Notes: generated by a model not told the origin, from the letters alone. A stretch of DNA of 64,000 nt from Narcine bancroftii (GCF_036971445.1 NC_091482.1:10292001-10356000), one strand, 5' to 3'; counted from the first letter of the stretch, positions 1 through 46,854 are shown. Made by a program: numbers and translations.

Positions 1-290
1 AACTAGAGGGCATGGTTTAAGATTGAAGGGGGAAAATTATAAGGGGAACATAAGGGGAAATTTCTTTACGCAAAGGGTGGTAGGGATGTGGAATGAGCTT
101 TTGGCAGACATAGTTGACACGGGATCATTGGTTACATTTAAGGATGGACTGGATAGTTACATGGAGAGGAGAGGACTGGAGGGGTATGGACCGGGTGCTG
201 GTCAGTGGGACGAGGTGGGTGTGGATTTGTTACAGCATGGACTAGTAGGGCCAAACTGGCCTGTTCTGTGCTCTAAGTGGTTATATGGTT
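1..290 (+). mobile_element. CR1 LINE 3' end (copy 1, cut by window edge)
   Basis: RGNFFTQRVVGMWNEL is the typical CR1 ORF2 C-terminus; ends in a short TGGTTA-type tail. Confidence 0.85.
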
Positions 291-743
291 AAAGGTCCCC
301 AACTTCTCAAGAACTCCTGAGGCAAATATTCTTGATTTACCTTGATTTACGATTTTCTCATAAAGGTTCAATATCAATTATTTATAAAAATTTGCTTGAT
401 TTAAGGATAACCTCATAAGTTAAGATCAAGAATGATTGGGAACAGGATTTGAATGTATAATTTTTGGATGAGGTTTCAGATTCGATTTGTAATCTGATTA
501 ATGCGACCTCCTTTGCGCTCGACCTTGTTTGTTGCAATTTAAAGTGGCCCATCGAGTTCACATGTGTAAAGTTAAATGATCTCATTTTTATTCAGATACA
601 AATACTCTTTTATGTGATAAACGCAACAAAAAAAAATTGATGCTTCATTGGACTTGCCCTAGTCTAGAAAAATTTTGATAATGTAATAGATAATGTAATG
701 TAATAGATAAGGTTTACATTATTTGCAGTTGAACAAAACAGTT

Positions 744-1536
744 AAGTGTGAGGTGTTACATTTTGGAAAGGGAAATCTAAATAGGTCATATGCATTAAAT
801 GGTAGGCTATTGAGATTTGCAGAGCAACAAAGGGATTTAGGAGTGATGGTAAATAGTACCCTCAAGGTCGATACTCAGGTCGATGGTGTGGTGAAGAAGG
901 CATTTGGAATGCTGGCCTTCATAAATCGGAGTATTGAATTCAAGAGTAGGGAGGTTATGATGAAATTGTACAAGGCATTGGTGAGGCCAAATTTGGAGTA
1001 CTGTGTACAGTTTTGGTCACCAAATTATAGGAAAGATATAAAAATAGAGAGAGTTCAGAGAAGGTTCACGAGAATGTTGACAGGATTTCAAGGTTTGAGT
1101 TACAGGGAAAGGTTGTGCAGACTACGGCTTTTTTTCTCTAGAGCGTAGAAGATTGAAGGGGGACTTGATAGAGGTTTTTAAGATTTTAAACGAGACAGAC
1201 AGAGTAAATGTGGATAGACTTTTTCCATTAAGAGTGGGGAAATTCAAACGAGAGGGCATGGTTTAAGATTGAAAGGGGAATATTATAAGGGGAACATGAG
1301 GGGAAATTTCTTTACGCAAATGGTGGTAGGGATGTGGAATGAGCTTCTGGCAGACATAGTTGAGACGGGATCATTGGTTACATTTAAGGATGGACTGGAT
1401 AGTTACATGCAGAGGAGAGGACTGGAGGGGTATGGACCAGGTGCTGGTCAGTGGGACTAGGAGGGTGGGGATTTGTTACAGCATGGACTAGTAGGGCCAA
1501 ACTGGCCTGCTCTGTGCTGTAAGTGGTTGTATGGTT
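744..1536 (+). mobile_element. 5'-truncated CR1 LINE (copy 2)
   Basis: KCEVLHFG, QRDLGV, LYKALVRPNLEYCVQFWSP, IERVQRRFTRM and FFTQxVVGMWN are CR1 ORF2 C-terminal motifs; frameshifted. Confidence 0.9.
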
Positions 1537-1990
1537 AAAGATCCCCGACTTCTCAAGAACTCCTGAGGCAAATATTCTTGATTTACCTTGATTTACAGTT
1601 TTGTCATAAAGGTTCAATATCAATTATTTATAACAATTTGCTTGATTTAATGATAGCCTCATAAGTTAAGATCAAGAATGATTGGGAACAGGATTTGAAT
1701 GTATAATTTTTGGATGAGGTTTGAAATTCGATTTGTAATCTGATTAATGCGACCTCCTTTTGCGCACGACCTTGTTTGTTGCAATTTAAAGTGGCCCATC
1801 GAGTGCACATGTGTAAAGTTATATGATCTCATTTTTATTCAAATACAAATACTCTTTTATGTGACAAACGCAACAAAAAAAAATTGAGGCTTCATTGGAC
1901 TTGCCCTCGTCTAGAAAATTCTTGATAATGTAATAGATAATGTAATGTAATAGATAAGGTTTACATTATTTGCAGTTGAACAGAACAGTT

Positions 1991-2783
1991 AAGTGTGAGG
2001 TGTTACATTTTGGAAAGGCAAATCTAAATAGGTCATATGCATTAAATGGTAGGCTATTGAGATTTGCAGAGCAACAAAGGGATTTTGGAGTGATGGTAAA
2101 TAGTACCCTCAAGGTCGATACTCAGGTCGATGGTGTGGTGAAGAAGGCATTTGGAATGCTGGCCTTCATAAATCGCAGTATTGAATTCAAGAGTAGGGAG
2201 GTTATGATGAAATTGTACAAGGCATTGGTGAGGCCAAATTTGGAGTACTGTGTACAGATTTGGTCACCAAATTATAGGAAAGATATTAAAATAGAGAGAG
2301 TTCAGAGAAGGTTCACAAGTATGTTGACAGGATTTCAAGGTTTGAGTTACAGGGAAAGGTTGTGCAGACTAGGGCTTTTTTTCTCTGGAGCGTAGAAGAT
2401 TGAGGGGGGACTTGATAGAGGTGTTAAAGATTTTAAAAGAGACAGACAGAGTAAATGTGGATAGACTTTTTCCATTAAGAGTGGGGAAATTCAAACGAGA
2501 GAGCATGGTTTAAGATTGAAGGGGGAAAATTATAAGGGGAACATGAGGGGAAATTTCTTTACGCAAAGGGTGGTAGAGATGTGGAATGAGCTTCTGGCAG
2601 ACATAGTTGAGACGGGATCATTGGTTACATTTAAGGATGGACTGGATAGTTACATGGAGAGGAGAGGACTAGAGGGGTATGGACCGGGTGCTGGTCCGTG
2701 CGACTAGGAGGGTGGTGATTTGTTACAGCATGGACTAGTAGGGCCAAACTGGCCTGTTCTGTGCTCTAAGTGGTTATATGGTT
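1991..2783 (+). mobile_element. 5'-truncated CR1 LINE (copy 3)
   Basis: Same motifs and the same 5' truncation point as copy 2, offset 1247. Confidence 0.9.
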
Positions 2784-3203
2784 AAAGATCCCCGACTTCT
2801 CAAGAACTCCTGAGGCAAATATTCTTGATTTACCTTGATTTACAGTTTTGTCATAAAGGTTCAATATCAATTATTTATAACAATTTGCTTGATTTAAGGA
2901 TAACCTCATAAGTTAAGATCAAGAATGATTGGGAACAGGATTTGAATGTATAATTTTTGGATGAGGTTTGAAATTCGATTTGTAATCTGATTAATACGAC
3001 CTCCTTTTTCGCACGACCTTGTTTGTTGCAATTTAATGTGGCCCATCGAGTGCACATGTGTAAAGTTAAATGATCTCATTTTTATTCAGATACAAATACT
3101 CTTTTATGTGATAAACGCAACAAAAAAAATTGATGCTTCATTGGACTTGCCCTAGTCTAGAAAAATTTTGATAATGTAATAGATAATGTAATGTAATAGA
3201 TAA
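2784..3203 (+). mobile_element. Decayed L1-clade ORF2 C-terminal fragment (also at 291-710 and 1537-1957)
   Basis: Broken reading gives KIKNDWEQDLNV, CLLQF.VAHRVHM, CDK and WTCPSLEK, resembling the L1 C-terminal zinc-knuckle region. Confidence 0.6.
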
Positions 3204-5963: not shown

Positions 5964-6302
5964 GCATAATCTCCAGATTGATGGTGTGCGTGCCAAAGAG
6001 AGGAGGAACATATACCAAACAGGTGTAGGGGCCTTCGTCGTTCATTCCAATATTTTTTATGCGGAGGGATGCATTCCCATTCTTGATCTGGTCCAAGAAT
6101 GGTTGAACTCTCTGATCGATGTGTTCAATCTGCTCATTCCACCCATTGTAGATAAACAATTTTTTCTTGACTCCCCTGTATTGATATCTCCAATCAATCT
6201 TAAAGCCTGTACTGTGATCAATCTTGTAGCCACAATCCAGGATGAAGTCTTGCTTCAGTTTGGTTCTGACCGATGGAGTACTTGTATGGATAATATAGCT
6301 CA
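5964..6302 (-). CDS. Tapasin-family gene, IgV-domain exon (VSYIIHTSTPSV...LDCGY...IDWRYQ...GNASLRI...DEGPYTCLVYVPP...INLEIM)
   Basis: 339 bp, phase 1-1, acceptor ttttcctattag and donor gtaagt. Canonical V-set C-W-DxGxYxC motifs; HTSTPSV and WRYQ resemble tapasin THTPAP/WRRQH and TAPBPR TQTQSL/WRLQH. Confidence 0.9.
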
Positions 6303-8269
6303 CTAATAGGAAAAAGAGAAGCAGCCATATTACAATGGTTAATAATTGTTTCATACAAATTTCATTTATTTCAGGCACTTACCATTTTGATTTACCCGTT
6401 TGTATACATACTGTACTTTCATTCTTTTTAATATTGTTGGAAAAGGTAACTTTTTAAATATTTCTGCACAACACCTTGCTGGGGCCAAATATACAAGAAG
6501 GAATTAAAATATTTTTTAAAGTTGCCAATTTTAATTAATTAATCAAAGGGAGATAGCAGGAACAGGGTATGAATTTGGACAATCAATGTTCAAATTTATT
6601 GTCAGAGTGCATACATGACATTGTAGGAGTGTAATGTAAATATTGTATTTAAAAATAAAGCAAACACTCAAAGTTTTAACATCCATAAAATGGCCGTCTG
6701 CCTTCCTTTATTTCGCTCTCCAACCATTCTCAATGCCTCCTTTCTTCCTCCCAGCATGTCTCTCGCACCACCCCTCTTGCCCCAACGAGCATCATCGCAA
6801 CCCCTCGCTCTGACAGCGCGTGCATGTTACCAATGGCCGCCAGCTTGCGCGTGCGCGCCACCTCCCGCGCACATCACCCAAGTGAAGCCTCGCGCCGCCC
6901 GGTCCAGGTGGGTACACGACTGCGACAAGCCTGAGATTTTTTTTTCTTTGTGGGACAGGCAGAATTTCTAAAGAACTGTAAACCAACTGACTGTGCAAAT
7001 ACAGAAATTATAAATATTCAGTAATAATGGATGAAATACAAGTCCTTAAATGAGGTCAGCACAACATTGTGGGCCAAAGAGCCTCTGAATGAGTCTACTG
7101 TTCCGGCATCTGATAGTTGATACGTCCTGATCATATTAAAATCACATAGTAGGATCAAAGAGCTGAAATACCAATTCCTTCTCCTATTCTCTACATTTCT
7201 AAGATATTGCCTTGAAATTACATGCACATCGAACAGTCTTCAATTTTGGATCTGCTTTTATAGTCATTACCATTATTTGACAATAGAGTACTTTAAAAAA
7301 AAAACTGCAGGCAAACACATCAACTTTTGGTTTCAATAATAAACGCTAACTAAATTGTTAAAGTCAACAAGAATACCTGGATGTTAAACAGCTCTCCCCT
7401 ACCTCTAAGCTGATTCAGTTATGATTCTGGAGGGACATCTGTCCATGCAACCAGCTGCCACAGGGAGAGATAAAGGCAGGTACAATTACTACAATGGGAA
7501 GACTTATGGACAGGTATATAGGATCAAAAGGTTTAGAGGAATATGGGCCAAGTGCATTCAAATGGGTCTAGCTCAGATAGCCAACTTAGTCAACATGGAC
7601 CTTAGGGCCATGCTGTGTTCTAGAACTCTAAATCCCTGGTATTCAGCACCTATGGGAACCAGTAGATGCCAGATAAGTGTATTTTCCAGTTGCTTGAGTT
7701 TGCGTGAATGCCAAATTAACGGTGAGTAGCGGCAATTCTAAACTTACGTATTTTTACCGATTTATTTTCTCAGCCTGCTTGAGGCTGTCAGTTGCTTTAA
7801 TGCCAGATACCAATGCAATTTGTTGGTAGGCTATGAACAGTTACATGATGATATCTAAATTCTTTTAAAAAAAATGTATGATTGGTATTATAAAACTTTT
7901 TTTCAGAGTTTTAATGGTATCCAAAAGAATAAGAACAAATTCTTTTTCCCCTCAGAGATCTTAAAACCCAGTCTTCCCTTGTACCATTTTGAGCAAATTA
8001 TTTCCAAGGATATTGAGACTGTTGAATGACCAATGAACTGCTCATATAAACCTTCTGAAACTCTACTAGATACTTAATTAACAATATTTATTTATTCTTA
8101 TACATATAAAAAGGGCTGCATAGGTATTGCTTGTCTGCATGCATACTACGTCTGGATGGGTGCTTGTGCGTTTTTGCACTGAGGACCAGAGAACGCTGCT
8201 TCATCGGGTTGTTCTTGTCCAACTGGATGATGATAAACATGAACAAAATTAGAAGGGTTGGATTATTAC

Positions 8270-8560
8270 CTTGAACGAGTAGAGTGTCTGTGTTTCCAAT
8301 AGGCGAATCTTCATCCTCAGTTGGTGTTTGACTCTTCCCATTGTCCTCTTGGTCAGGTGCTTTTAATTTCCTTAGGAAGCTAGTTACAGTGAACTTGCCA
8401 TGCTTGTGCTTCATAGTCACCATAAACCATACGTCCTCACTGGACCCCTCACCCTGGTGAGGCCAGGGAACGTAGATGTCACCGGTAGAATATCGGCTAA
8501 TTTCACACTCCAAGTCATTAGGTTGCATATCGACATACTGCAATATGTCCAAAGAAGATT
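8270..8560 (-). CDS. Tapasin-family gene, second N-domain exon (ESSLDILQY...LECEISRY...PWP...VWFMVTM...TLLVQ)
   Basis: 291 bp, phase 1-1, acceptor ttttcatttatag and donor gtaata. CEISRY and WFM match TAPBPR (TCEISRY, AWFM) and tapasin (CEMSRF, AWLM). Confidence 0.9.
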
Positions 8561-8671
8561 CTATAAATGAAAAGAAAGGTTCAGGCTTCCATTAGATAAA
8601 AAGTAGGAACCTGCACTTCTCTCCAATATTGATAAATAAGGAAATCTGCAGACAATGGGGCCAAGTGGAAT

Positions 8672-8773
8672 ACACAAATGTGCAGGAGAAATTCAGCAGG
8701 TCACGTTTTAGTAAGGCCCAATGCTTCCTCTGGATGTCGCGCGACCTGCTGAGTTTCTCCAGCACTTTCGTGT
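8672..8773. repeat. Short inverted-repeat element (about 34-bp arms) made from Penelope-type terminal sequence
   Basis: acacaaatgtgcaggagaaattcagcaggtcacg is the near reverse complement of cgcgacctgctgagtttctccagcactttcgtgt; the same motif ends the element at 9580. Confidence 0.65.
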
Positions 8774-9579
8774 TTTGCCTCTTCCTTACGTCACTAACTA
8801 GTTTTAGTTGCAGCATGTCATTCCCAGAAAACTTACCGCATTGAAATATCACTGTAACAAGCCATTCTGGCTCAGGGCCTCTACACAGTCTCCTGATGCC
8901 CTGAACCTTGAACGATGAAGGATGTCGAGAGCCGAAGGGGTTACGTCCCCACAGCCTATGAAGGTAGATGTGCGAAGGAGTGGGCAGCAATTATGTGCGG
9001 AGGGCTGAGTCCCGCACAACCCAACCAGTCATCAGAGCGTCATTTGGGCTCCCTGTCCTTCTGGACAATAATCAAACACATGATTTTTTTAAAAATTTGA
9101 TTTGGTCCACTGCATCATTGAAGCATTCCATGAGGCCATTCAGCCCATCACATCAATGCATCTTGCCCACACTACAGCCTGAAAGAGAGATCCCCTGAGG
9201 CATCTCAAATTTTGGTCTCATTTCTCAAACAAGAATTCTATGGATTTGGTTAGAATGTCTAGCTTACACCCTATTCCATTCCAAAGGCAGTACATCCAGA
9301 TAAATTGCACTCGATACAAAACTTGCCTTAATGCCAAATGATACCATTCACCAATGTGAAGGTGACATAAAAGAATTTGTTTTTTTACCTTATAAATCAG
9401 TGGCCCAACTGGGTTACCAAGAGACATGCCATTGGAAATCTACAAGTGAAATAAACTTAACTGGCCTCAATTTTCTATTGTAAGCAACTGTTGATGTTTA
9501 AGACAGTGGAAAGACAACTTCAAGTGTTTTGAATCATGATGTTACAGAAGAAATTGACCACAAATAATTAATTGCCAAG

Positions 9580-10080
9580 TAAAAACACAATGCTGGAGAA
9601 ACTCAGCAGGCCAGACAGTGTACTTTATGCAGTAAAGATAAAGATACCTAACCAACGTTTCAGGCTTGAGCCCTTCATCAAGCAAAATGTAGACAGGCAC
9701 CCAAACAAAATGGAGGGGAAGAGCACAGGCCCAATGGAAGGAGGTAATAGGTGGATGAGGGAGGGAGGGCACACAAACAGGTGGGGGGGGGGGGGGCAAT
9801 GGTCTGTGAATGAAGAAGGGGTGGAGAGCTGGAAAAAAGACAAAGGGATGAGGAAAAGAGGGAGAATGGGGAATGGGTTGGAAGAAAATCATTGTTTATG
9901 TCATCCAGTTGGAGAATGTGCACACGGAATATTAGGAGTTGCTCTTTCAATATACGGGTGGCCTTGGTTTGACAGTATGAGGCCATAGACAGCCATGGCA
10001 GAATGGGAGTGGGGAGCAGAATTGAAGTGGCTGGCCACTAGGAGATCCCTTTCATGAATGTGGACAGACCGAAGGTGCAT
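9580..10080 (-). mobile_element. Penelope-like element 3' fragment (GIY-YIG C-terminal remnant plus terminal repeat)
   Basis: Minus-strand remnants VASHFNSAPHSH and CQTKATRILKEQLLIFRV...DDINNDF resemble the PLE endonuclease C-terminus; followed by a pyrimidine-rich tract and a hammerhead-like terminal repeat. Confidence 0.75.
9654..9682 (-). ncRNA. Minimal hammerhead-ribozyme-like motif with a core variant, in the PLE terminal repeat
   Basis: Minus strand reads TTGATGA-A-GGGC-TCAA-GCCT-GAAA-CGTT: CUGAUGA box with C changed to U, a helix II hairpin, a GAAA box and palindromic AACGTT. Confidence 0.6.
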
Positions 10081-10114
10081 TAATTGCTGAGCTTGTTTGA
10101 TGTTCTCAGGTTAC

Positions 10115-10291
10115 CTTTGACTTTAAAAATAATCGCTTTCTCGTTTGTGTCGACATCACCAACCAGCAGTAATGCCTTTCTCGTGATAACTATGGGCCCA
10201 AACGCACCAACCCCTTCATTGGGCCTCTCCTCTCGAAAGATGCAGTCCAATTTGGTTGGAATTATATGTCCATTCTGAGCCAGCACAATTC
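10115..10291 (-). CDS. Tapasin-family gene, first N-domain exon (GIVLAQNGHIIPTKLDCIFREE...RKALLLVG...IIFKVK)
   Basis: 177 bp, phase 1-1, polypyrimidine acceptor ending taag and donor gtaacc. LDCxF...ALLL...IIF parallels TAPBPR LDCFL...ASLVL...IIFE; splices in frame to 8560. Confidence 0.85.
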
Positions 10292-12155: not shown

Positions 12156-13435
12156 GATCTTGATGAATGCTGGAACAGGCTCGAAGCCCTGGAGGATATG
12201 TTGCTGCTCTTGACATTCATGATTTTAATAACCTCTTGTAGATTACCCCTCACCTTCCTCACTCCCTCAGCTGATCCGAAGAAGCAAAGGTTAGCCTGGA
12301 CAACAAGGAAACCCCTCTACCCCTCTGAACCACGAACTGAGATGACCGTGGCAAAAGCATCCACAGAGAATCCAGACTCAAAATATTGACTGACCCTTTC
12401 TCTCCACGGATGCTGCCTGACTGACCTGCTGAGTCCCTCCATTGTTCAGTCGGAGGTGACTGTCACAGAAAGAACTGTGGCTGCAGCAGTGCGTTACAGG
12501 TACAGCTCAACTGTCATGAAAAGACAGAAATGCTGGACGAACTCAGCAGATCTTGCAGCATCCAGAGGAGGTCAAGATGTATTAGAATCCTTCTTCAAGG
12601 TAGGAGTAAAAAAGCAGGCAGGCACTTGGGGGGGTGGACCACAGGGGGTGACACCAAAATGACTGTTTAGAAAAACTTTGTGCAGTGTTTCAGCAGAAAT
12701 GTATTATTTTTTATCAAAACATCCCTGTTGTTAGTCAAAACAGCAAAAACTTTTTTCGGAACATGTATCAATAGCCCCACAAGACTAAAACCCGACACCC
12801 AGGTACTTTTTGAACCTTCTAATGCGCCAATTACGACATTTTGAATCTGCTAGTGTTCTTCTAGACGCGGCTTTAGTCACATTTTCCGGTGTTTTAGCTA
12901 CAATATTGTGGCAATTAGTATTTGTGAACCAATATCCATAACTTTTTTTGAGCATTAAGGGGGAGAATTTTTTTTAACGGCTTCATGGGGAGGGGGGGGT
13001 TTAAACACCAATCCCGCTGCTTGAACCGACTTCCCCTGCTGTTTAATTCAGGCGCCTGTCTACTTTTCACTCAGACCTCGAAGGCAGCTCAGGGCTGAAA
13101 CGTCTCTCCCACTCATGGGCGCTGCGAGACCTCCAGCAAACTCAGATGCTGCAGGCACCAGACTCTAATAGATCAGCTCAACTCTGACTTGTCAGAACAA
13201 ACCCGGAGAGATGCTTCCTGCCGGTATCTTCTTTCCAAATGCATCAGACAGAGCGATTCATCTGTCCAGGTCTGGGGTCCCATCCACCAAGCTCATGCCT
13301 GCACCTGAAGCGTCTTCTCATGGTCGGCGCATCCCAGTTTGAGGCCTGAGATCGCGAGTAAACGCTTGAACTTTCGAGATTCAATTCCAGGAACTTGCTA
13401 CTTACAACAGCCATTCGGCCCTGAATACAAAGTGT

Positions 13436-16400
13436 AACCAGCCGAATACAATGCGTCCGGAGGTCTTCCCGGCCACGAGAAAGGCGAGAACCAGCCTCAA
13501 CGCGTCCGGTGGTCTTCCCTGCCACGAGAAAGGCGAAAACCAGCCTCAACGCGTCCGGTGGTCTTCCCTGCCACGAGAAAGGGGAGAACCAGCATCAACA
13601 CGTCCGGTGGTCTTCCCTGCCACGAGAAAGGGGAGAACCAGCCTCAACGCGTCCGGTGGACCTCCCTGCCACGAGAAAGGGGAGAACCAGCCTCAACGCG
13701 TCCGGTGGTCCTCCCTGCCACGAGAAAGGGGAGAACCAGCCTCAACGCGTCCGGTAGTCCTCCCTGCCACGAGAAAGGGGAGAACCAGCCTCAACGCGTC
13801 CGGTGGTCCTCCCTGCCACGAGAAAGGGGAGAACCAGCCTCAACGCGTCCGGTGGTCCTCCCTGCCACCAGAAAGGGGAGAACCAGCCTCAACGCGTCCG
13901 GTGGTCCTCCCTGCCACCAGAAAGGGGAGAACCAGCCTCAACGCGTCCGTTGGTCCTCCCTGCCACGAGAAAGGGGAGAACCAGCCTCAACGCGTCCGGT
14001 GGTCCTCCCTGCCACGAGATAGGGGACAACCAGCCTCAACGCGTCCGGTGGTCCTCCCTGCCACGAGAAAGGGGAGAACCAGCCTCAACGCGTCCGGTGG
14101 TCTTCCCTGCCACGAGAAAGGGGAGAACCAGCCTCAACGCGTCCGGTGGTATTCCCTGCCACGAGATAGGGGAGAACCAGCCTCAACGCGTCCGGTGGTC
14201 TTCCCCGCCACGAGAAAGGGGAGAACCAGCCTCAACGCGTCCGGTGGTCTTCCCCGCCACGAGAAAGGGGAGAACCAGCCTCAACGCGTCCGGTGGTCTT
14301 CCCTGCCACGAGAAAGGGGAGAACCAGCCTCAACGCGTCCGGTGGTCTTCCCTGCCACGAGAAAGGGGAGAACCAGCCTCAACGCGTCAGGTGGTCTTCC
14401 CTGCCACGAGAAAGGGGAGAACCAGCCTCAACGCGTCCGGTGGTCTTCCCTGCCACGAGAAAGGGGAGAACCAGCCTCAACGCGTCCGGTGGTCTTCCCT
14501 GCCACGAGAAAGGGAAGAACCAGCCTCAACGCGTCCGGTGGTCTTCCCTGCCACGAGAAAGGGGAGAACCAGACTCAACGCGTCCGGTGATCCTCCCTGC
14601 CACGAGAAAGGGGAGAACCAGACTCAACACGTCCGGTGGTCCTCCCTGCCACGAGAAAGGGGAGAACCAGCCTCAACGCGTCAGGTGGTCCTCCCTGCCA
14701 CAAGAAAGGGGAGAACCAGCCTCAACGCGTCCGGTGGTCCTCCCTGCCACGAGAAAGGGGAGAACCAGCCTCAACCCTTCCAGTGGTCCTCCCTGCCACG
14801 AGAAAGGGGAGAACCAGCCTCAACGCGTCCGGTGATCCTCCCTGCCACGAGAAAGGGGAGAACCAGACTCAACACGTCCGGTGGTCCTCCCTGCCACGAG
14901 AAAGGGGAGAACCAGCCTCAACGCGTCCGGTGGTCCTCCCTGCCACGAGAAAGGGGAGAACCAGCCTCAACGCGTCCGGTGGTCCTTCCTGCCACGAGAA
15001 AGGGGAGAACCAGCCTCAACGCGTCCGGAGGTCCTCCCTGCCACGAGAAAGGGGAGAACCAGCCTCAACGCGTCCGGTGGTCCTCCCTGCCACGAGAAAG
15101 GGGAGAACCAGCCTCAACGCGTCCGGTGGACCTCCCTGCCACGAGAAAGGGGAGAACCAGCCTCAACGCGTCCGGTGGTCCTCCCTGCCACGAGAAAGGG
15201 GAGAACCAGCCTCAACGCGTCCGGTAGTCCTCCCTGCCACGAGAAAGGGGAGAACCAGCCTCAACGCGTCCGGTGGTCCACCCTGCCACGAGAAAGGGGA
15301 GAACCAGCCTCAACGCGTCCGGTGGTCCTCCCTGCCACGAGAAAGGGGAGAACCAGCCTCAACGCGTCCGGTAGTCCTCCCTGCCACGAGAAAGGGGAGA
15401 ACCAGCCTCAACGCGTCCGGTGGTCCTCCCTGCCACGAGAAAGGGGAGAACCAGCCTCAACGCGTCCGGTGGTCCTCCCTGCCACCAGAAAGGGGAGAAC
15501 CAGCCTCAACGCGTCCGTTGGTCCTCCCTGCCACGAGAAAGGGGAGAACCAGCCTCAACGCGTCCGGTGGTCCTCCCTGCCACGAGAAAGGGGAGAACCA
15601 GCCTCAACGCGTCCGGTGGTATTCCCTGCCACGAGATAGGGGAGAACCAGCCTCAACGCGTCCGGTGGTCTTCCCCGCCACGAGAAAGGGGAGAACCAGC
15701 CTCAACGCGTCCGGTGGTCTTCCCCGCCACGAGAAAGGGGAGAACCAGCCTCAACGCGTCCGATGGTCTTCCCTGCCACGAGAAAGGGGAGAACCAGCCT
15801 CAAAGCGTCCGGTGGTCCTCCCTGCCACGAGAAAGGGGAGAACCAGCCTCAACGCGTCCGGTGGTCTTCCCTGCCACGAGAAAGGGGAGAGCCAGCCTCA
15901 ACGCGTCCGGTGGTCCTCCCTGCCACGAGAAAGGGGAGAACCAGCCTCAACGCGTCCGGTGGTCCTCCCTGCCACGAGAAAGGGGAGAACCAGCCTCAAC
16001 GCGTCAGGTGGTCTTCCCCGCCACGAGAAAGGGGAGAACCAGCCTCAACGCGTCCGGTGGTCTTCCCTGCCACGAGAAAGAGGAGAACCAGCCTCAACGC
16101 GTCCGGTGGTCTTCCCTGCCACGAGAAAGAGGAGAACCAGCCTCAACGCGTCCGGTGGTCCTCCCTGCCACGAGAAAGGGGAGAACCAGCCTCAACGCGT
16201 CCGGTGGTCCTCCCTGCCACCAGAAAGAGGAGAACCAGCCTCAACGCGTCCGGTGGTCTTCCCTGCCACGATAAAGGGGAGAACCAGCCTCAACGCGTCC
16301 GGTGGTCTTCCCTGCCACGAGAAAGGGGAGAACCAGCCTCAACGCGTCCGGTGGTCCTCCCTGCCACGAGAAAGGGGAGAACCAGCCTCAACGCGTCCGG

Positions 16401-19400
16401 TGGTCCTCACTGCCACGACAAAGGGGAGAACCAGCCTCAACGCGTCCGGTGGTCCTCCCTGCCACGAGAAAGGGGAGAACCAGCCTCAACGCGTCCGGTG
16501 GTCCTCCCTGCCACGAGAAAGGGGAGAACCAGCCTCAACGCGTCCGGTGGTGTTCCCTGCCACGAGAAAGGGGAGAACCAGCCTCAACGCGTCCGGTGGT
16601 CCTCCCTGCCACGAGAAAGGGGAGAACCAGCCTCAACGCGTCCGGTGGTCCTCCCTGCCACGAGAAAGGGGAGAACCAGCCTCAACGCGTCAGGTGGTCT
16701 TCCCCGCCACGAGAAAGGGGAGAACCAGCCTCAACGCGTCCGGTGGTCCTCCCTGCCACCAGAAAGAGGAGAACCAGCCTCAACGCGTCCGGTGGTCTTC
16801 CCTGCCACGATAAAGGGGAGAACCAGCCTCAACGCGTCCGGTGGTCTTCCCTGCCACGAGAAAGGGGAGAACCAGCCTCAACGCGTCCGGTGGTCCTCCC
16901 TGCCACGAGAAAGGGGAGAACCAGCCTCAACGCGTCCGGTGGTCCTCCCTGCCACGACAAAGGGGAGAACCAGCCTCAACGCGTCCGGTGGTCCTCCCTG
17001 CCACGAGAAAGGGGAGAACCAGCCTCAACGCGTCCGGTGGTCTTCCCTGCCACGAGAAAGGGGAGAACCAGCCTCAACGCGTCCGGTGGTCTTCCCTGCC
17101 ACGAGAAAGAGGAGAACCAGCCTCAACGCGTCCGGTGGTCCTCCCTGCCACGAGAAAGGGGAGAACCAGCCTCAACGCGTCCGGTGGTCTTCCCTGCCAC
17201 GAGAAAGGGGAGAACCAGCCTCAACGCGTCCGGTGGTCTTCCCTGCCACGAGAAAGGGGAGAACCAGCCTCAACGCCACGATAAAGGGGAGAACCAGCCT
17301 CAACGCGTCCGGTGGTCTTCCCTGCCACGAGAAAGAGGAGAACCAGCCTCAACGCGTCCGGTGGTCTTCCCTGCCACGAGAAAGGGGAGAACCAGCCTCA
17401 ACGCGTCCGGTGGTCCTCCCTGCCACGAGAAAGAGGAGAACCAGCCTCAACGCGTCCGGTGGTCTTCCCTGCCACGAGAAAGGGGAGAACCAGCCTCAAC
17501 GCGTCCGGTGGTCTTCCCTGCCACGAGAAAGGGGAGAACCAGCCTCAACGCGTCCGGTGGTCTTCCCTGCCACGAGAAAGGGGAGAACCAGCCTCAACGC
17601 GTCCGGTGGTCTTCCCTGCCACGAGAAAGGGGAGAACCAGCCTCAACGCGTCCGGTGGTCTTCCCTGCCACGAGAAAGGGGAGAACCAGCCTCAACGCGT
17701 CCGGTGGTCTTCCCTGCCACGAGAAAGGGGAGAACCAGCCTCAACGCGTCCGGTGGTCTTCCCTGCCACGAGAAAGGGGAGAACCAGCCTCAACGCGTCC
17801 GGTGGTCTTCCCTGCCACGAGAAAGGGGAGAACCAGCCTCAACGCGTCCGGTGGTCTTCCCTGCCACGAGAAAGGGGAGAACCAGCCTCAACGCGTCCGG
17901 TGGTCTTCCCTGCCACGAGAAAGGGGAGAACCAGCCTCAACGCGTCCGGTGGTCTTCCCTGCCACGAGAAAGGGGAGAACCAGCCTCAACGCGTCCGGTG
18001 GTCTTCCCTGCCACGAGAAAGGGGAGAACCAGCCTCAACGCGTCCGGTGGTCGTCCCTGCCACGAGAAAGGGGAGAACCAGCCTCAACGCGTCCGGTGGT
18101 CTTCCCTGCCACGAGAAAGGGGAGAACCAGCCTCAACGCGTCCGGTGGTCTTCCCTGCCACGAGAAAGGGGAGAACCAGCCTCAACGCGTCCGGTGGACC
18201 TCCCTGCCACGAGAAAGGGGAGAACCAGCCTCAACGCGTCCGGTGGTCCTCCCTGCCACGAGAAAGGGGAGAACCAGCCTCAACGCGTCCGGTAGTCCTC
18301 CCTGCCACGAGAAAGGGGAGAACCAGCCTCAACGCGTCCGGTGGTCCTCCCTGCCACGAGAAAGGGGAGAACCAGCCTCAACGCGTCCGGTGGTCCTCCC
18401 TGCCACCAGAAAGGGGAGAACCAGCCTCAACGCGTCCGGTGGTCCTCCCTGCCACCAGAAAGGGGAGAACCAGCCTCAACGCGTCCGTTGGTCCTCCCTG
18501 CCACGAGAAAGGGGAGAACCAGCCTCAACGCGTCCGGTGGTCCTCCCTGCCACGAGATAGGGGACAACCAGCCTCAACGCGTCCGGTGGTCCTCCCTGCC
18601 ACGAGAAAGGGGAGAACCAGCCTCAACGCGTCCGGTGGTCTTCCCTGCCACGAGAAAGGGGAGAACCAGCCTCAACGCGTCCGGTGGTATTCCCTGCCAC
18701 GAGATAGGGGAGAACCAGCCTCAACGCGTTCGGTGGTCTTCCCCGCCACGAGAAAGGGGAGAACCAGCCTCAACGCGTCCGGTGGTCTTCCCCGCCACGA
18801 GAAAGGGGAGAACCAGCCTCAACGCGTCCGGTGGTCTTCCCTGCCACGAGAAAGGGGAGAACCAGCCTCAACGCGTCCGGTGGTCTTCCCTGCCACGAGA
18901 AAGGGGAGAACCAGCCTCAACGCGTCAGGTGGTCTTCCCTGCCACGAGAAAGGGGAGAACCAGCCTCAACGCGTCCGGTGGTCTTCCCTGCCACGAGAAA
19001 GGGGAGAACCAGCCTCAACGCGTCCGGTGGTCTTCCCTGCCACGAGAAAGGGAAGAACCAGCCTCAACGCGTCCGGTGGTCTTCCCTGCCACGAGAAAGG
19101 GGAGAACCAGACTCAACGCGTCCGGTGATCCTCCCTGCCACGAGAAAGGGGAGAACCAGACTCAACACGTCCGGTGGTCCTCCCTGCCACGAGAAAGGGG
19201 AGAACCAGCCTCAACGCGTCAGGTGGTCCTCCCTGCCACAAGAAAGGGGAGAACCAGCCTCAACGCGTCCGGTGGTCCTCCCTGCCACGAGAAAGGGGAG
19301 AACCAGCCTCAACCCTTCCAGTGGTCCTCCCTGCCACGAGAAAGGGGAGAACCAGCCTCAACGCGTCCGGTGATCCTCCCTGCCACGAGAAAGGGGAGAA

Positions 19401-21690
19401 CCAGACTCAACACGTCCGGTGGTCCTCCCTGCCACGAGAAAGGGGAGAACCAGCCTCAACGCGTCCGGTGGTCCTCCCTGCCACGAGAAAGGGGAGAACC
19501 AGCCTCAACGCGTCCGGTGGTCCTTCCTGCCACGAGAAAGGGGAGAACCAGCCTCAACGCGTCCGGTGGTCCTCCCTGCCACGAGAAAGGGGAGAACCAG
19601 CCTCAACGCGTCCGGTGGTCCTCCCTGCCACGAGAAAGGGGAGAACCAGCCTCAACGCGTCCGGTGGACCTCCCTGCCACGAGAAAGGGGAGAACCAGCC
19701 TCAACGCGTCCGGTGGTCCTCCCTGCCACGAGAAAGGGGAGAACCAGCCTCAACGCGTCCGGTAGTCCTCCCTGCCACGAGAAAGGGGAGAACCAGCCTC
19801 AACGCGTCCGGTGGTCCACCCTGCCACGAGAAAGGGGCGAACCAGCCTCAACGCGTCCGGTGGTCCTCCCTGCCACCAGAAAGGGGAGAACCAGCCTCAA
19901 CGCGTCCGTTGGTCCTCCCTGCCACGAGAAAGGGGAGAACCAGCCTCAACGCGTCCGGTGGTCCTCCCTGCCACGAGATAGGGGACAACCAGCCTCAACG
20001 CGTCCGGTGGTCCTCCCTGCCACGAGAAAGGGGAGAACCAGCCTCAACGCGTCCGGTGGACCTCCCTGCCACGAGAAAGGGGAGAACCAGCCTCAACGCG
20101 TCCGGTGGTCCTCCCTGCCACGAGAAAGGGGAGAACCAGCCTCAACGCGTCCGGTAGTCCTCCCTGCCACGAGAAAGGGGAGAACCAGCCTCAACGCGTC
20201 CGGTGGTCCTCCCTGCCACGAGAAAGGGGAGAACCAGCCTCAACGCGTCCGGTGGTCCTCCCTGCCACCAGAAAGGGGAGAACCAGCCTCAACGCGTCCG
20301 TTGGTCCTCCCTGCCACGAGAAAGGGGAGAACCAGCCTCAACGCGTCCGGTGGTCCTCCCTGCCACGAGAAAGGGGAGAACCAGCCTCAACGCGTCCGGT
20401 GGTCCTCCCTGCCACGAGAAAGGGGAGAACCAGCCTCAACGCGTCCGGTGGTCTTCCCTGCCACGAGATAGGGGAGAACCAGCCTCAACGCGTCCGGTGG
20501 TCTTCCCCGCCACGAGAAAGGGGAGAACCAGCCTCAACGCGTCCGGTGGTCTTCCCCGCCACGAGAAAGGGGAGAACCAGCCTCAACGCGTCCGATGGTC
20601 TTCCCTGCCACGAGAAAGGGGAGAACCAGCCTCAACGCGTCCGGTGGTCCTCCCTGCCACGAGAAAGGGGAGAACCAGCCTCAACGCGTCCGGTGGTCTT
20701 CCCTGCCACGAGAAAGAGGAGAACCAGCCTCAACGCGTCCGGTGGTCCTCCCTGCCACGAGAAAGGGGAGAACCAGCCTCAACGCGTCCGGTGGTCTTCC
20801 CTGCCACGAGAAAGGGGGAGAACCAGCCTCAACGCGTCCGGTGGTCTTCCCTGCCACGAGAAAGGGGAGAACCAGCCTCAACGCCACGATAAAGGGGAGA
20901 ACCAGCCTCAACGCGTCCGGTGGTCTTCCCTGCCACGAGAAAGAGGAGAACCAGCCTCAACGCGTCCGGTGGTCTTCCCTGCCACGAGAAAGGGGAGAAC
21001 CAGCCTCAACGCGTCCGGTGTCCTCCCTGCCACGAGAAAGAGGAGAACCAGCCTCAACGCGTCAGGTGGTCTTCCGTGCACGAGAAAGGGGAGAACCAGC
21101 CTCAACGCGTCCGGTGGTCTTCCCTGCCACGAGAAAGGGGAGAACCAGCCTCAACGCGTCCGGTGGTCTTCCCTGCCACGAGAAAGGGGAGAACCAGCCT
21201 CAACGCGTCCGGTGGTCTTCCCTGCCACGAGAAAGGGGAGAACCAGCCTCAACGCGTCCGGTGGTCTTCCTGCCACGAGAAAGGGGAGAACCAGCCTCAA
21301 CGCGTCCGGTGGTCTTCCCTGCCACGAGAAAGGGAGAACCAGCCTCAACGCGTCCGGTGGTCTTCCCTGCCACGAGAAAGGGGAGAACCAGCCTCAACGC
21401 GTCCGGTGGTCTTCCCTGCCACGAGAAAGGGGAGAACCAGCCTCAACGCGTCCGGTGGTCTTCCCTGCCACGAGAAAGGGGAGAACCAGCCTCAACGCGT
21501 CCGGTGGTCTTCCCTGCCACGAGAAAGGGGAGAACCAGCCTCAACGCGTCCGGTGGTCTTCCCTGCCACGAGAAAGGGGAGAACCAGCCTCAACGCGTCC
21601 GGTGGTCTTCCCTGCCACGAGAAAGGGAGAACCAGCCTCAACGCGTCCGGTGGTCTTCCTGCCACGAGAAAGGGGAGAACCAGCCTCAAC
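13436..21690. repeat. 49-bp GC/CpG-rich satellite, about 168 copies, AACCAGCCTCAACGCGTCCGGTGGTCYTCCCTGCCACGAGAAAGGGGAG; runs into the assembly gap
   Basis: Directly visible periodicity; 4 CpG per unit; patterned single-base variants; degenerate first unit at 13436-13488. Confidence 0.98.
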
Positions 21691-21890
21691 NNNNNNNNNN
21701 NNNNNNNNNNNNNNNNNNNNNNNNNNNNNNNNNNNNNNNNNNNNNNNNNNNNNNNNNNNNNNNNNNNNNNNNNNNNNNNNNNNNNNNNNNNNNNNNNNNN
21801 NNNNNNNNNNNNNNNNNNNNNNNNNNNNNNNNNNNNNNNNNNNNNNNNNNNNNNNNNNNNNNNNNNNNNNNNNNNNNNNNNNNNNNNNNN
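21691..21890. other. Scaffold gap (200 N)
   Basis: Run of exactly 200 n, so the true size is unknown. Confidence 0.99.
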
Positions 21891-22729: not shown

Positions 22730-23096
22730 CTCATAAACGTGGAAAAAGCAGCAAACGCCATAATTCTGCAACATCTCCAAGCTCGGAAACACCAGCTCAT
22801 CAAGGGGATACAAGCCATATCCAGGACCCCTGAAAAAAAGTGATAAGTCGGATGAAGATTACACCGAAACATCCACCATAGATCAACTTTCTAACTCTGT
22901 AAACGAATCTCTACGGTGGGATGGAATTCTTGAAGACCCTGTGGCAGAAGAGGAAAGGATCAAACTTTACAAACTAAATCGACAGTTGAGGTATTTGGCA
23001 GCTCAGAACAACATGTGCAAGGAGATCCAGTTCTGCCAAAAGGACCTTTCTGATACAGAATCGGAAAAGAGAGAATCCATACATCATTACCAGTAA
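22730..23096 (+). CDS. LIAT1: LIAT1 (C17orf97, ligand of ATE1) coding exon with the Liat1 domain; 1-bp frameshift near 22827-22833
   Basis: Acceptor tttcctgtctctccag at 22729. 22899-22994 encodes VNESLRWDGILEDPVAEEERIKLYKLNRQLRY, which I recognise as the conserved Liat1 domain. Convergent with RFLNB as in human. Missed by the ORF track; C-terminal end uncertain. Confidence 0.8.
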
Positions 23097-23566: not shown

Positions 23567-26500
23567 CTCAATCTAAGGAAGAAACGTGACACATTCGTTA
23601 GAGGGTGGCAATCTTACTTGAAATATTGGCGCACAGATGGATTACACCCCCCCCCTCAATCTAAGGAAGAAACGTGGACACATTCGTTAGAGGGTGGCAA
23701 TCTTACTTGAAATATTGGCGCACAGATGGATTACACCCCCCCCCCTCAATCTAAGGAAGAAACGTGACACATTCGTTAGAGTGTGCAATCTTACTTGAAA
23801 TATTGGCGCACAGATGGATTACACCCCCCCCCCTCAATCTAAGGAAGAAACGTGACACATTCGTTAGAGGGTGGCAATCTTACTTGAAATATTGGCGCAC
23901 AGATGGATTACACCCCCCCCCCTCAATCTAAGGAAGAAACGTGACACATTCGTTAGAGGGTGGCAATCTTACTTGAAATTTGGCGCACAGATGGATTACA
24001 CCCCCCCCTCAATCTAAGGAAGAAACGTGACACATTCGTTAGAGGGTGGCAATCTTACTTGAAATATTGGCGCACAGATGGATTACACCCCCCCCCCCTC
24101 AATCTAAGGAAGAAACGTGACACATTCGTTAGAGGGTGGCAATCTTACTTGAAATATTGGCGCACAGATGGATTACACCCCCCCTCCCAAACTAAGGAAG
24201 AAAACGTGACACATTCGTTAGAGGGTGGCAATCTTACTTGAAATATGCGCACAGATGGATTACACACCCCCCCCCTCAATCTAAGGAAGATAAACGTGAC
24301 ACATTCGTTAGAGGGTGGCAATCTTACTTGAAATATTGGCGCACAGATGGATTACACCCCCCCCCTCAATCTAAGGAAGAAACGTGACACATTCGTTAGA
24401 GGGTGGCAATCTTACTTGAAATATTGGCGCACAGATGGATTACACCCCCCCCCCTCAATCTAAGGAAGAAACGTGACACATTCGTTAGAGGGTGGCAATC
24501 TTACTTGAAATATTGGCGCACAGATGGATTACACCCCCCCCTCAATCTAAGGAAGAAACGTGACACATTCGTTAGAGGGTGGCAATCTTACTTGAAATAT
24601 TGGCGCACAGATGGATTACACCCCCCCCCCTCAATCTAAGGAAGAAACGTGACACATTCGTTAGAGGGTGGCAATCTTACTTGAAATATTGGCGCACAGA
24701 TGGATTACACCCCCCCCCTCAATCTAAGGAAGAAACGTGACACATTCGTTAGAGGGTGGCAATCTTACTTGAAATATTGGCGCACAGATGGATTACACCC
24801 CCCCCCTCAATCTAAGGAAGAAACGTGACACATTCGTTAGAGGGTGGCAATCTTACTTGAAATATTGGCGCACAGATGGATTACACCCCCCCCCCTCAAT
24901 CTAAGGAAGAAACGTGACACATTCGTTAGAGGGTGGCAATCTTACTTGAAATATTGGCGCACAGATGGATTACACCCCCCCCCTCAATCTAAGGAAGAAA
25001 CGTGACACATTCGTTAGAGGGTGGCAATCTTACTTGAAATATTGGCGCACAGATGGATTACACCCCCCCCCTCAATCTAAGGAAGAAACGTGACACATTC
25101 GTTAGAGGGTGGCAATCTTACTTGAAATATTGGCGCACAGATGGATTACACCCCCCCCCCAATCTAAGGAAGAAACGTGACACATTCGTTAGAGGGTGGC
25201 AATCTTACTTGAAATATTGGCGCACAGATGGATTACACCCCCCCCCTCAATCTAAGGAAGAAACGTGACACATTCGTTAGAGGGTGGCAATCTTACTTGA
25301 AATATTGGCGCACAGATGGATTACACCCCCCCCCTCAATCTAAGGAAGAAACGTGACACATTCGTTAGAGGGTGGCAATCTTACTTGAAATATTGGCGCA
25401 CAGATGGATTACACCCCCCCCCTCAATCTAAGGAAGAAACGTGACACATTCGTTAGAGGGTGGCAATCTTACTTGAAATATTGGCGCACAGATGGATTAC
25501 ACCCCCCCCTCAATCTAAGGAAGAAACGTGACACATTCGTTAGAGGGTGGCAATCTTACTTGAAATATTGGCGCACAGAGATACAGCGCTGGCATATTAC
25601 CAACTGAGATCCTACTTGAAAGATAAATTAGGAAGCAACTTGAGTTTACCAGAGGGAAGTAACCTTGAATATGTGATTACAGATACAATGTTAATCAAAA
25701 GATTTATAAAAAATATGTATATTAAACTGCAAGAAAAGGAAAATGAGGAAACAAATGGTAAAACTAAACAAAAATGGGAACAAGATTTAAATATAAAGAT
25801 AAAAAAGGAAACATGGGAGAAGTTATGCTCTGGAACGATGAGAAATACAATAAATACGAGGCTGCGTATGATACAATATAATTGGTTACACAGACTATAC
25901 ATTACACCGCAAAAGTTAAATAAATGGGACCCAACAGTATCTGATAGATGTTTTCGATGTAAAAAAGAAAGGGGAACAACAATTCATGCAATCTGGACAT
26001 GTGAGAGAGTAGAAAAATTTTGGGATGATCTCAATCAGATATTAAATAAAATAACAGAAAACAATATACCAAAGAATCCAGAGATCTTTCTCCTAAGTAA
26101 CATAAAAAATAAAGAATTTGGAATTGACTTGGAGGATGCACAAAAAAGATTTGTTAAGATAGCCCTAGCTGTAGCAAAAAAAATGTATTATGTCAACCTG
26201 GAAATTGGAAGATAATTTGAAAATACAACAATGGTATATAGAAATGAATAAATGTATTCCATTAGAAAAAATAACATATAGTTTAAGAAATAATATTGAA
26301 ATATTCGAACAAGTATGGGAGCCTTACATTAAATACAATAGCGAAAACCTACCGGGAACAAACATTACCTAAGTTGATGGAAGGAGAAGAGAAGAAAAGA
26401 ATGGACTCAGTAGAATTTCTGGTGTATTTTTGTTGAATGACAACATTGTCTAACTGAATTAATGCAACCTAGATTGTATAACTAAAATGGATGAGAGGGG

Positions 26501-34275: not shown

Positions 34276-34585
34276 TTAACTGGTCATGTAGTCCGTGACT
34301 TCAAGTTCAACACTGGACAGAAACCTCCGAGCTGCCTTTCTGCAGTTGTAATCCACTGTGGTGGTGTAGACAGTCTTTGCGTACTTTGGGTAGACGATGA
34401 CTGCGCTGAGGAATCGCAGCGGTTTGTGTTGAAGCTCAAATTTCAGCTCCGTCTTGTAGTTCCGCCATGTGCAGTCGGGAACACAGATGACTGTCTGACT
34501 GCAGGAGCCAACACCCAAAGTGTGTTGCAGGAACACATTATTGATGTAATGTCGGTCGGAGTCATACTTCACTGAGGATGTGTAC
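34276..34585 (-). CDS. RFLNB: Refilin-B (FAM101B) last coding exon
   Basis: Acceptor tgcag; encodes RYTSSVKYDSDRHYI...SCSQTVICVPDCTWRNYK...YPKYAKTVYTTTVDYNCRK...RRFLSSVELE, closely matching human refilin-B; stop TAA at 34276-34278. Confidence 0.93.
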
Positions 34586-34857
34586 CTGCAGATACAAAGT
34601 CAAAGGGCTATTTACTCATTGACTTGTCAAAACCAGTAAGGATGAAAGACGATGTGCCCAAGTCAATGATTCATTGCCAAAAGATGACCCTGCCATCCTA
34701 TCAGTAAAGGGCACAGTCACCCAGCTAAGTCATTGTTTTTGAAAGCTCACTCACCAAAAGAAAAACAAGCTTTGCCATGCATTCCGAGCTAATCACATTT
34801 TAAAATACAATGATTCTGCTCATCTCCACACCAAATATACACAGCAAGCCTCCAGGT

Positions 34858-41764: not shown

Positions 41765-43172
41765 CTTTTCTTTGGCTTGGCTTCGCGGACGAAGATTTAT
41801 GGAGGGGGTAAAAAGTCCATGTCAGCTGCAGACTCGTTTGTGGCTGACAAGTCCGATGCGGGACAGGCAGACACGATTGCAGCGGTTGCAGGGGAAAATT
41901 GGTTGGTTGGGGATGGGTGTTGGGTTTTTCCTCCTTTGCCTTTTGTCAGTGAGGTAGGCTCTGCGGTCTTCTTCAAAGGAGGTTGCTGCCCACCAAACTG
42001 TGAGGCGCCAAGATGCACGGTTTGAGGCGATATCAGCCCACTGGCGGTGGTCAATGTGGCAGGCACCAAGAGATTTCTTTAGGCAGTCCTTGTACCTTTT
42101 CTTTGGTGCACCTCTGTCACGGTGGCCAGTGGAGAGCTCGCCATATAACACGATCTTGGGAAGGCGATGGTCCTCCATTCTGGAGACGTGACCCATCCAG
42201 CGCAGCTGGATCTTCAGCAGCGTGGACTCGATGCTGTCGACCTCTGCCATCTCGAGTACTTCGACGTTAGGGATGTAAGCGCTCCAATGAATGTTGAGGA
42301 TGGAGCGGAGACAACGCTGGTGGAAGCGTTCTAGGAGCCGTAGGTGGTGCCGGTAGAGGACCCATGATTCGGAGCCGAACAGGAGTGTGGGTATGACAAC
42401 GGCTCTGTATACGCTTATCTTTGTGAGGTTTTTCAGTTGGTTGTTTTTCCAGACTCTTTTGTGTAGTCTTCCAAAGGCGCTATTTGCCTTGGCGAGTCTG
42501 TTGTCTATCTCATTGTCGATCCTTGCATCTGATGAAATGGTGCAGCCGAGATAGGTAAACTGGTTGACCGTTTTGAGTTTTGTGTGCCCGATGGAGATGT
42601 GGGGGGGCTGGTAATCATGGTGGGGAGCTGGCTGATGGAGGACCTCAGTTTTCTTCAGGCTGACTTCCAGGCCAAACATTTTGGCAGTTTCCGCAAAGCA
42701 GGACGTCAAGCGCTGAAGAACTGGCTCTGAATGGGCAACTAAAGCGGCATCGTCTGCAAAGAGTAGTTCACGGACAAGTTTCTCTTGTGTCTTGGTGTGA
42801 GCTTGCAGGCGCCTCAGATTGAAGAGACTGCCATCCGTGCGGTACCGGATGTAAACAGCGTCTTCATTGTTGGGGTCTTTCATGGCTTGGTTCAGCATCA
42901 TGCTGAAGAAGATTGAAAAGAGGGTTGGTGCCAGAACACAGCCTTGCTTCACGCCATTGTTAATGGAGAAGGGTTCAGAGAGCTCATTGCTGTATCTGAC
43001 CCGACCTTGTTGGTTTTCGTGCAGTTGGATAATCATGTTGAGGAACTTTGGGGGACATCCAATGCGCTCCAAGAAAAATGCAGAGAACAAAACAAAGGAC
43101 TCTACATCACCTTTGTTGACCTCACCAAAGCCTTCGACACCGTGAGCAGGAAAGGGCTTTGGCAAATACTAG
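41765..43172 (-). mobile_element. RTE-clade LINE, 5'-truncated, with an inverted 5' segment and TSD
   Basis: Open RT (GVKQGCVLAP, LFADD) and C-terminal CxxC...H...C; short-repeat tail; 43067-43172 inverted (FVDLTKAFD on the plus strand); flanks tagctacccatt at 41753-41764 and 43170-43181. Confidence 0.95.
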
Positions 43173-45749: not shown

Positions 45750-46854
45750 TTGGCGAAAGAAGTTGAAGCTTTTGGCGAAAGAAGTTGAAGCTTTTGGCGA
45801 AAGAAGTTGAAGCTTTTGGCGAAAGAAGTTGAAGCTTTTGGCGAAAGAAGTTGAAGCTTTTGGCGAAAGAAGTTGAAGCTTTTGGCGAAAGAAGTTGAAG
45901 CTTTTGGCGAAAGAAGTTGAAGCTTTTGGCGAAAGAAGTTGAAGCTTTTGGCGAAAGAAGTTGAAGCTTTTGGCGAAAGAAGTTGAAGCTTTTGGCGAAA
46001 GAAGTTGAAGCTTTTGGCGAAAGAAGTTGAAGCTTTTGGCGAAAGAAGTTGAAGCTTTTGGCGAAAGAAGTTGAAGCTTTTGGCGAAAGAAGTTGAAGCT
46101 TTTGGCGAAAGAAGTTGAAGCTTTTGGCGAAAGAAGTTGAAGCTTTTGGCGAAAGAAGTTGAAGCTTTTGGCGAAAGAAGTTGAAGCTTTTGGCGAAAGA
46201 AGTTGAAGCTTTTGGCGAAAGAAGTTGAAGCTTTTGGCGAAAGAAGTTGAAGCTTTTGGCGAAAGAAGTTGAAGCTTTTGGCGAAAGAAGTTGAAGCTTT
46301 TGGCGAAAGAAGTTGAAGCTTTTGGCGAAAGAAGTTGAAGCTTTTGGCGAAAGAAGTTGAAGCTTTTGGCGAAAGAAGTTGAAGCTTTTGGCGAAAGAAG
46401 TTGAAGCTTTTGGCGAAAGAAGTTGAAGCTTTTGGCGAAAGAAGTTGAAGCTTTTGGCGAAAGAAGTTGAAGCTTTTGGCGAAAGAAGTTGAAGCTTTTG
46501 GCGAAAGAAGTTGAAGCTTTTGGCGAAAGAAGTTGAAGCTTTTGGCGAAAGAAGTTGAAGCTTTTGGCGAAAGAAGTTGAAGCTTTTGGCGAAAGAAGTT
46601 GAAGCTTTTGGCGAAAGAAGTTGAAGCTTTTGGCGAAAGAAGTTGAAGCTTTTGGCGAAAGAAGTTGAAGCTTTTGGCGAAAGAAGTTGAAGCTTTTGGC
46701 GAAAGAAGTTGAAGCTTTTGGCGAAAGAAGTTGAAGCTTTTGGCGAAAGAAGTTGAAGCTTTTGGCGAAAGAAGTTGAAGCTTTTGGCGAAAGAAGTTGA
46801 AGCTTTTGGCGAAAGAAGTTGAAGCTTTTGGCGAAAGAAGTTGAAGCTTTTGGC
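45750..46854. repeat. 22-bp minisatellite TTGGCGAAAGAAGTTGAAGCTT, 50 copies plus 5 bp
   Basis: (46850-45750)/22 = 50; no variant unit seen; translations are perfectly periodic. Confidence 0.98.

Follow-up and report, generated by a model that had tools for sequence, protein, structure and literature searches.

Near the left end of a 64,000-nt stretch of DNA of the electric ray Narcine bancroftii (G000:C29:10292001-10356000, hereafter the window), three minus-strand exons encode a protein of the tapasin family, which raises the question of which member of this family the gene is and what its product does with major histocompatibility complex (MHC) class I (MHC-I) molecules. A sequence-only reading had placed it in a third, 'tapasin-like' lineage of non-placental vertebrates, and this was borne out by phylogenetic trees, by the other paralogs that the ray genome holds and by contigs spanning the splice joints. 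The window gene is the electric-ray ortholog of the third tapasin paralog, TAPBPL, and is both intact and spliced. Throughout, TAPBPL stands for TAPBP-like, as this paralog is named in Grimholt 2018 (PMC5824609); the human gene symbol TAPBPL denotes TAPBPR. Public annotation already lists the ray gene, though by a generic name, and publication of the lineage dates from 2018.

Orthologs were searched for among rays, sharks, the chimaera and bony-vertebrate relatives, together with shark tapasins. P0010, P0016, P0018, P0025, P0027, P0029 and P0030, as well as most of the 150 rows from one search for relatives, were left out of the trees, being partial, redundant or made of multiple immunoglobulin (Ig) domains. 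In the 59-row tree, P0001, the NCBI model 'tapasin-related protein-like [Narcine bancroftii]' that holds the window exons, fell among the rays (support 100/100), inside a chondrichthyan group (100/99) and within a 34-row TAPBPL clade (96/100) that includes coelacanth, lungfish, ray-finned fish, amphibian, bird and marsupial proteins. The tapasins (100/98) and the TAPBPRs (93/86) were separate from this clade. A 30-row tree restricted to the window-coded part gave supports of 100/100, 100/98 and 100/100 and joined the window product to TAPBPL at 100/100. Forcing the product into TAPBPR or TAPBP cost 62 log-likelihood units, and both placements were rejected by the approximately unbiased (AU) test run under the simpler LG+G4 model (p-AU 1.4e-7 and 1.6e-7). 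As anchors of the clade, P0040 (Xenopus laevis) and P0063 (chicken-like) match, by eye, TAPBPL sequences in the Grimholt supplement (PMC5824609). In pairwise comparison, the window product is 45% identical to coelacanth TAPBPL, against 30% for the ray tapasin and 26% for the TAPBPR of the catshark. The spliced product thus lies inside neither TAPBP nor TAPBPR and groups with TAPBPL. An assignment as tapasin proper was rejected for want of orthology to TAPBP and of MHC linkage, and one as TAPBPR for want of orthology and of the free N-domain Cys (human C94). Our paper searches brought up no account of TAPBPL from cartilaginous fish, though the supplements of PMC10751288, a thesis cited in PMC9586880 and subscription papers may list such genes; the 'tapbpl' of PMC10751288 stands in its text among human MHC-paralog-12 genes, and for this reason we read it as TAPBPR.

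The window gene is a third paralog, since an MHC-linked tapasin and a TAPBPR-like locus exist elsewhere in this genome. The ray tapasin (P0181; E 5e-50 against human tapasin) lies at C5:187.72 Mb, about 2 Mb from class I genes. The TAPBPR-like locus, on the minus strand at C5:140,484,246-140,485,337, keeps the TAPBPR free-Cys motif and is very divergent (30 to 36% identity to exons of shark TAPBPR). The IgV exon falls about 12 residues short and shifts frame near its end. No C1 exon turned up within 140.46-140.50 Mb, but the assembly has a 200-N gap 1.7 kb downstream. Shark TAPBPR was an insensitive query for whole-genome searches, one catching a single weak exon of this locus and another none, and failure to find the C1 exon therefore does not show that it was lost. 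The locus may be a pseudogene or an assembly error. A further match, at 268.56 Mb of the sequence named C1, was rejected as TAPBPR since it belongs to a multi-domain B7-H6-like gene.

Three side observations concern these regions. A cluster of V and C1 exons resembling multi-domain B7-H6-like genes occupies C1:268.49-268.62 Mb. The tapasin C1 exon is followed, about 10 kb downstream, by a butyrophilin/B7-like pair of V and C exons (C5:187,704,708-187,706,334). Finally, a class I gene at C5:189.776-189.780 Mb has alpha1, alpha2 and alpha3 exons of classical look, and its alpha1/alpha2 joint seems to be one base off in a G run, suggesting homopolymer errors in the assembly.

Within the window, the three exons (Table 1) join in phase 1 with AG/GT ends to an open frame of 807 nt, or 268 whole codons. 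Both joints, 8560/10115 and 6302/8270, were seen in assembled contigs of all four runs of one study, three of which have all three exons together on one contig record, and the gene is therefore spliced as read. The runs, none of which is recorded as RNA, are probably RNA by a tool's guess, and the contigs give neither expression level nor tissue. Splice ends, frame and contig joints thus agree with the proposed tapasin/TAPBPR exon plan. The residue-level description proved equally accurate: the product has LDC, CEISRY, the GNAS sequon, the pair of IgV Cys and the acidic segment at the places given, and its N-domain contains two Cys only. The second exon lacks, near its conserved Trp, the free Cys of bony fish. 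A promoter-motif scan, run without a control, gave one palindrome resembling a gamma-activated site at 13385 and no interferon-stimulated response element; its result was not used.

The C1, transmembrane (TM) and tail exons expected to the left of the window were found there, in fitting phases. The ray gene hence encodes an N-domain, an IgV domain, a C1 domain, a TM segment and a short tail, the signal-peptide exon excepted, and its product gives Pfam V-set and C1-set matches. As read from the genome, the TM segment has no lysine and the tail is of the (K/R/P)KPY type. We compared these features in a 51-row alignment of 32 TAPBPL rows (14 chondrichthyan and 18 bony-vertebrate), 10 tapasin rows and 9 TAPBPR rows, human tapasin standing outside it. 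From canonical genomic splice sites and from the KPY end of 12 of the 14 chondrichthyan rows (the exceptions being P0001 and P0013), we infer that the ray tail is KKKPY. KPY ends 26/32 TAPBPL rows versus 0/19 tapasin and TAPBPR rows, and the dilysine tail is kept from chimaera to marsupial.

The public model P0001 was set against C29:10272293-10305414, and its start, a 12-residue insert and its end are not shared with the nine other rows compared. Its first and last exons appear to be wrong and a 36-nt exon to be superfluous, which hides the KKKPY tail. Its start was rejected, the 5' end being unlike that of the orthologs, and the insert and C terminus were treated as probable model artefacts. 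Two contigs extend 156 and 213 nt past the first mapped exon, so that a signal-peptide exon exists; it may lie in the assembly gap upstream. A hydrophobic candidate at 10782-10731 was rejected, as a stop arises at the joint.

The ray gene had also been described as a mixture of tapasin and TAPBPR features, and this part was not supported. The N-glycan sequon occurs in 14/14 chondrichthyan TAPBPL, 8/10 tapasin and 6/9 TAPBPR rows (the motif is also present in CD276), and the IgV Cys pair is found in all 51 rows; human tapasin lacks the pair. Sequon and IgV disulfide are also present in the ray's own tapasin, which misses Cys95, a residue that no non-human sequence of the Grimholt alignment contains (PMC5824609). 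Because tapasin and TAPBPR rows and the ray tapasin share these traits, sequon, IgV pair and absence of Cys95 likely represent the ancestral state of the family rather than a chimera, with human tapasin as the outlier. The long loop after the first Cys is present but not distinctive, with 24 residues compared to 22 to 23 in cartilaginous-fish tapasins and 22 in shark TAPBPR; it is not Gly-rich, whereas that of tapasin and TAPBPR is. Likewise, the acidic insert exists but is not peculiar to the ray, being similar in the cartilaginous-fish TAPBPL proteins P0002, P0003 and P0014 and variable or short in bony vertebrates. A free Cys 11 residues past tapasin Cys95 is described by Grimholt (PMC5824609) as unique to TAPBPL. 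This position is Val in the ray, and the Cys is present in 0/14 chondrichthyan and 8/18 bony-vertebrate rows; in the Grimholt alignment, frog, turtle and opossum TAPBPL lack it too. It thus marks a subset of TAPBPL and not the family.

What would such a protein do? We consider it probable that ray TAPBPL is an endoplasmic reticulum (ER)-retrieved chaperone, predicted to hold peptide-receptive class I in a cradle like that of tapasin and TAPBPR, with no free Cys for ERp57 or UGT1, no TM lysine for TAP and a shifted client range. TAPBPL likely helps MHC-I to fold and load peptides inside the cell. Dilysine (KKXX/COPI) tails mediate ER retrieval, and the KKKPY tail would retrieve TAPBPL in this way. 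The protein would be glycosylated at the IgV sequon, would hold MHC-I through its N-domain/IgV cradle and its C1 domain, and could edit peptides with the loop after the first Cys. Having no free Cys, it would likely have no disulfide-linked partner (ERp57, UGT1), and having no TM lysine, probably no TAP-binding helix. Replacement of the residues matching Q261 and L250 would alter which class I molecules it prefers.

The AlphaFold2 model of ray TAPBPL is confident over the luminal domains (mean predicted local distance difference test score 82.1, predicted template modelling score 0.70), and the first 12 Foldseek rows are tapasin and TAPBPR chains only (best E 2.8e-25). We then mapped, via P0181, tapasin contact and mutagenesis positions that PMC10040737 (text and mutant table) and PMC9474470 (text) give; E307, which aligns with T358, was left out of the count. 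Five of the ten positions are identical in ray TAPBPL (E72, S74, R187, Q189 and D337), and three are conservative or resemble shark tapasin (E185 to D, H190 to Y and R333 to K). Nearly all cartilaginous-fish TAPBPL rows retain R187, Q189, E72 and, at R333, a basic residue. For R187 in particular, the residue is present in 14/14 chondrichthyan rows, 4/4 rows of coelacanth, lungfish and basal ray-finned fish, 5/8 teleost rows and 0/6 tetrapod rows. According to the text of PMC9474470, tapasin R187E cuts the class I surface level to 55%. Salmon TAPBPL genes are reported in PMC7573153 to rise 1.5- to 3.0-log2-fold with interferon-gamma.

Several points weigh against this function. The two remaining mapped positions are replaced, L250 and Q261 both being Thr in the ray; Q261 is Gln in 10/10 tapasins and 9/9 TAPBPRs but in 1/32 TAPBPL rows, and tapasin Q261A brings surface MHC-I down to 65% (text of PMC9474470). 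With R187 missing from every tetrapod row, part of the TAPBPL lineage may no longer bind MHC-I in this way. The fold match is expected from homology and uninformative on binding, and the alignment behind the model included tapasins and TAPBPRs. P0001 ends otherwise than the KKKPY tail, whose exons are read from the genome only, and no convincing signal-peptide exon emerged from the minus strand upstream of 10291, which was scanned four times. TAPBPL function is called unknown in PMC7573153, PMC9372762 and PMC9586880, and our paper searches brought up no functional test of TAPBPL, whether of binding or of editing.

The strongest rival holds that TAPBPL is an ER chaperone of non-classical class I or other MHC-family molecules, which it would hold without catalyzing peptide exchange on classical class I. 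Such a role would fit the exchange of Q261 and L250 across the lineage, in which the hairpin and C1 contacts persist, as well as a loop that is not Gly-rich and the location outside the MHC. The retention of R187, Q189, E72 and the basic R333 position in cartilaginous fish speaks against it, and so does the induction of the salmon copies by interferon-gamma together with the class I pathway (PMC7573153), so that we regard it as unlikely, though deserving of attention. Less probable again is that the protein has moved out of the MHC pathway and acts as an Ig-superfamily ligand, B7-like or other, or chaperones an unrelated client. The IgV-C1 part does score equally against B7-H6, CD276 and TAPBPR, and the hairpin contact residues are lost in tetrapod orthologs; however, the ray protein has a full tapasin N-domain, its best fold matches are tapasin and TAPBPR, its dilysine tail has been conserved from chimaera to marsupial, and the hairpin motif kept in ray and shark copies is absent from the CD276 and B7-H6 rows. 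That the window gene is the species' TAPBPR or a translocated tapasin, to which the NCBI label 'tapasin-related protein-like' and the divergent C5 locus with its frame break in the assembly might point, is refuted as orthology by the AU tests, the separate tapasin and TAPBPR-like loci, the identities given above and the absence of the free-Cys motif that the C5 locus keeps, and deserves hardly any credence, although a functional stand-in for TAPBPR could remain.

Around the gene, the neighbours named in the sequence-only reading were recovered in part (Table 1): RFLNB was confirmed by Pfam, and LIAT1 is only probable, its candidate exon having an Atlas lead and no Pfam match. Rabphilin-type exon queries, a weak test, did not find RPH3AL in the 180 kb to the left of the window. 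VPS53 is on C29, about 230 kb from TAPBPL; LIAT1, RFLNB and VPS53 are genes that lie together on human 17p13.3. We found no paper linking tapasin to the RPH3AL/VPS53 neighbourhood. Besides the 49-bp array of Table 1, uniform tandem arrays lie at 23567-25579 (88-bp), 45750-46854 (22-bp) and 49189-53818 (23-bp; 201 copies, 100% match), and the long open frames within the arrays are repeat artefacts. Two elements were named by resemblance: a duplicated block derived from a long interspersed nuclear element (LINE) at 1-3100, with a period of about 1.25 kb, and a LINE reverse-transcriptase fragment at 41825-43168.

Table 1. Features of the TAPBPL locus, numbered from the first letter of the window unless given on C29
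Feature	Position	Strand or place	Remarks
TAPBPL exon, N-domain first part (first Cys, editing-loop region)	10291-10115, 177 nt	-	AG/GT ends; joint in contigs
TAPBPL exon, N-domain second part (CEISRY Cys, conserved Trp, acidic segment)	8560-8270, 291 nt	-	
TAPBPL IgV exon (disulfide pair, hairpin matching E185/R187/Q189/H190, N-glycan sequon, Thr at Q261)	6302-5964, 339 nt	-	
TAPBPL C1 exon	C29:10283984-10283658	left of window	fitting phase
TAPBPL TM exon	C29:10282066-10281974	left of window	fitting phase
TAPBPL 17-nt exon	C29:10277402-10277386	left of window	fitting phase
TAPBPL last exon with stop	C29 from ~10274951	left of window	frame ends KKKPY
49-bp tandem array, 8.2 kb	13449-21690		between first mapped TAPBPL exon and LIAT1
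200-N assembly gap	21691-21890		directly after 49-bp array
Probable LIAT1 last coding exon	22764-23093	+	ESM Atlas LIAT1-cluster feature match 0.87, lead only
RFLNB (FAM101B) coding exon	34279-34599	-	Pfam PF15068 (FAM101), E 8.5e-46

The ray and shark copies carry the TAPBPL lineage into cartilaginous fish. More of the MHC-I contact surface survives in them than in the tetrapod copies, which makes them well suited to a first test of binding, and Q261, lost across the lineage, offers a specific residue with which to probe function. A broader scenario, speculative and in our view rather improbable as a whole, would have all three paralogs already present in the jawed-vertebrate ancestor, with cartilaginous-fish TAPBPL as a working, ER-retrieved editor of MHC-I that acts independently of TAP and has a class I preference of its own, the hairpin later dismantled in tetrapods and, in the ray, TAPBPL replacing a decaying TAPBPR.

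Among known systems, tapasin (TAPBP; PDB 3f8u, 6eny, 7qng and 9rcv) shares with ray TAPBPL the predicted fold, the sequon at the N233 position, the PW motif after the second Cys, most of the mapped MHC-I contacts and a lysine-containing tail. Unlike tapasin, ray TAPBPL is not MHC-linked, lacks both the connecting-peptide and TM lysine pattern and Q261, and is 30% identical to ray tapasin; the absence of Cys95 is no contrast here, as ray tapasin lacks it too. With TAPBPR (PDB 5opi, 5wer and 9c96) it shares the predicted fold, the IgV disulfide, CEISRY, the SH(K/R) motif of the C1 domain, the non-MHC location and a TM segment free of lysine, and it differs in having no UGT1-binding Cys, a shorter segment before the second Cys, no Gln equivalent to Q272 and a KPY tail, which none of the nine TAPBPR rows has. 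The closest system is the published TAPBPL (Grimholt 2018, PMC5824609), whose set, as given in the Fig. 6 legend and Text S4, lists no cartilaginous fish. The ray gene agrees with it in clade, in the six canonical Cys, in having no equivalent of Cys95 or Cys94 and no TM lysine, in the KPY tail and in the location outside the MHC; it departs from it in the absence of the free Cys and in keeping the hairpin residues that tetrapod TAPBPL lost.

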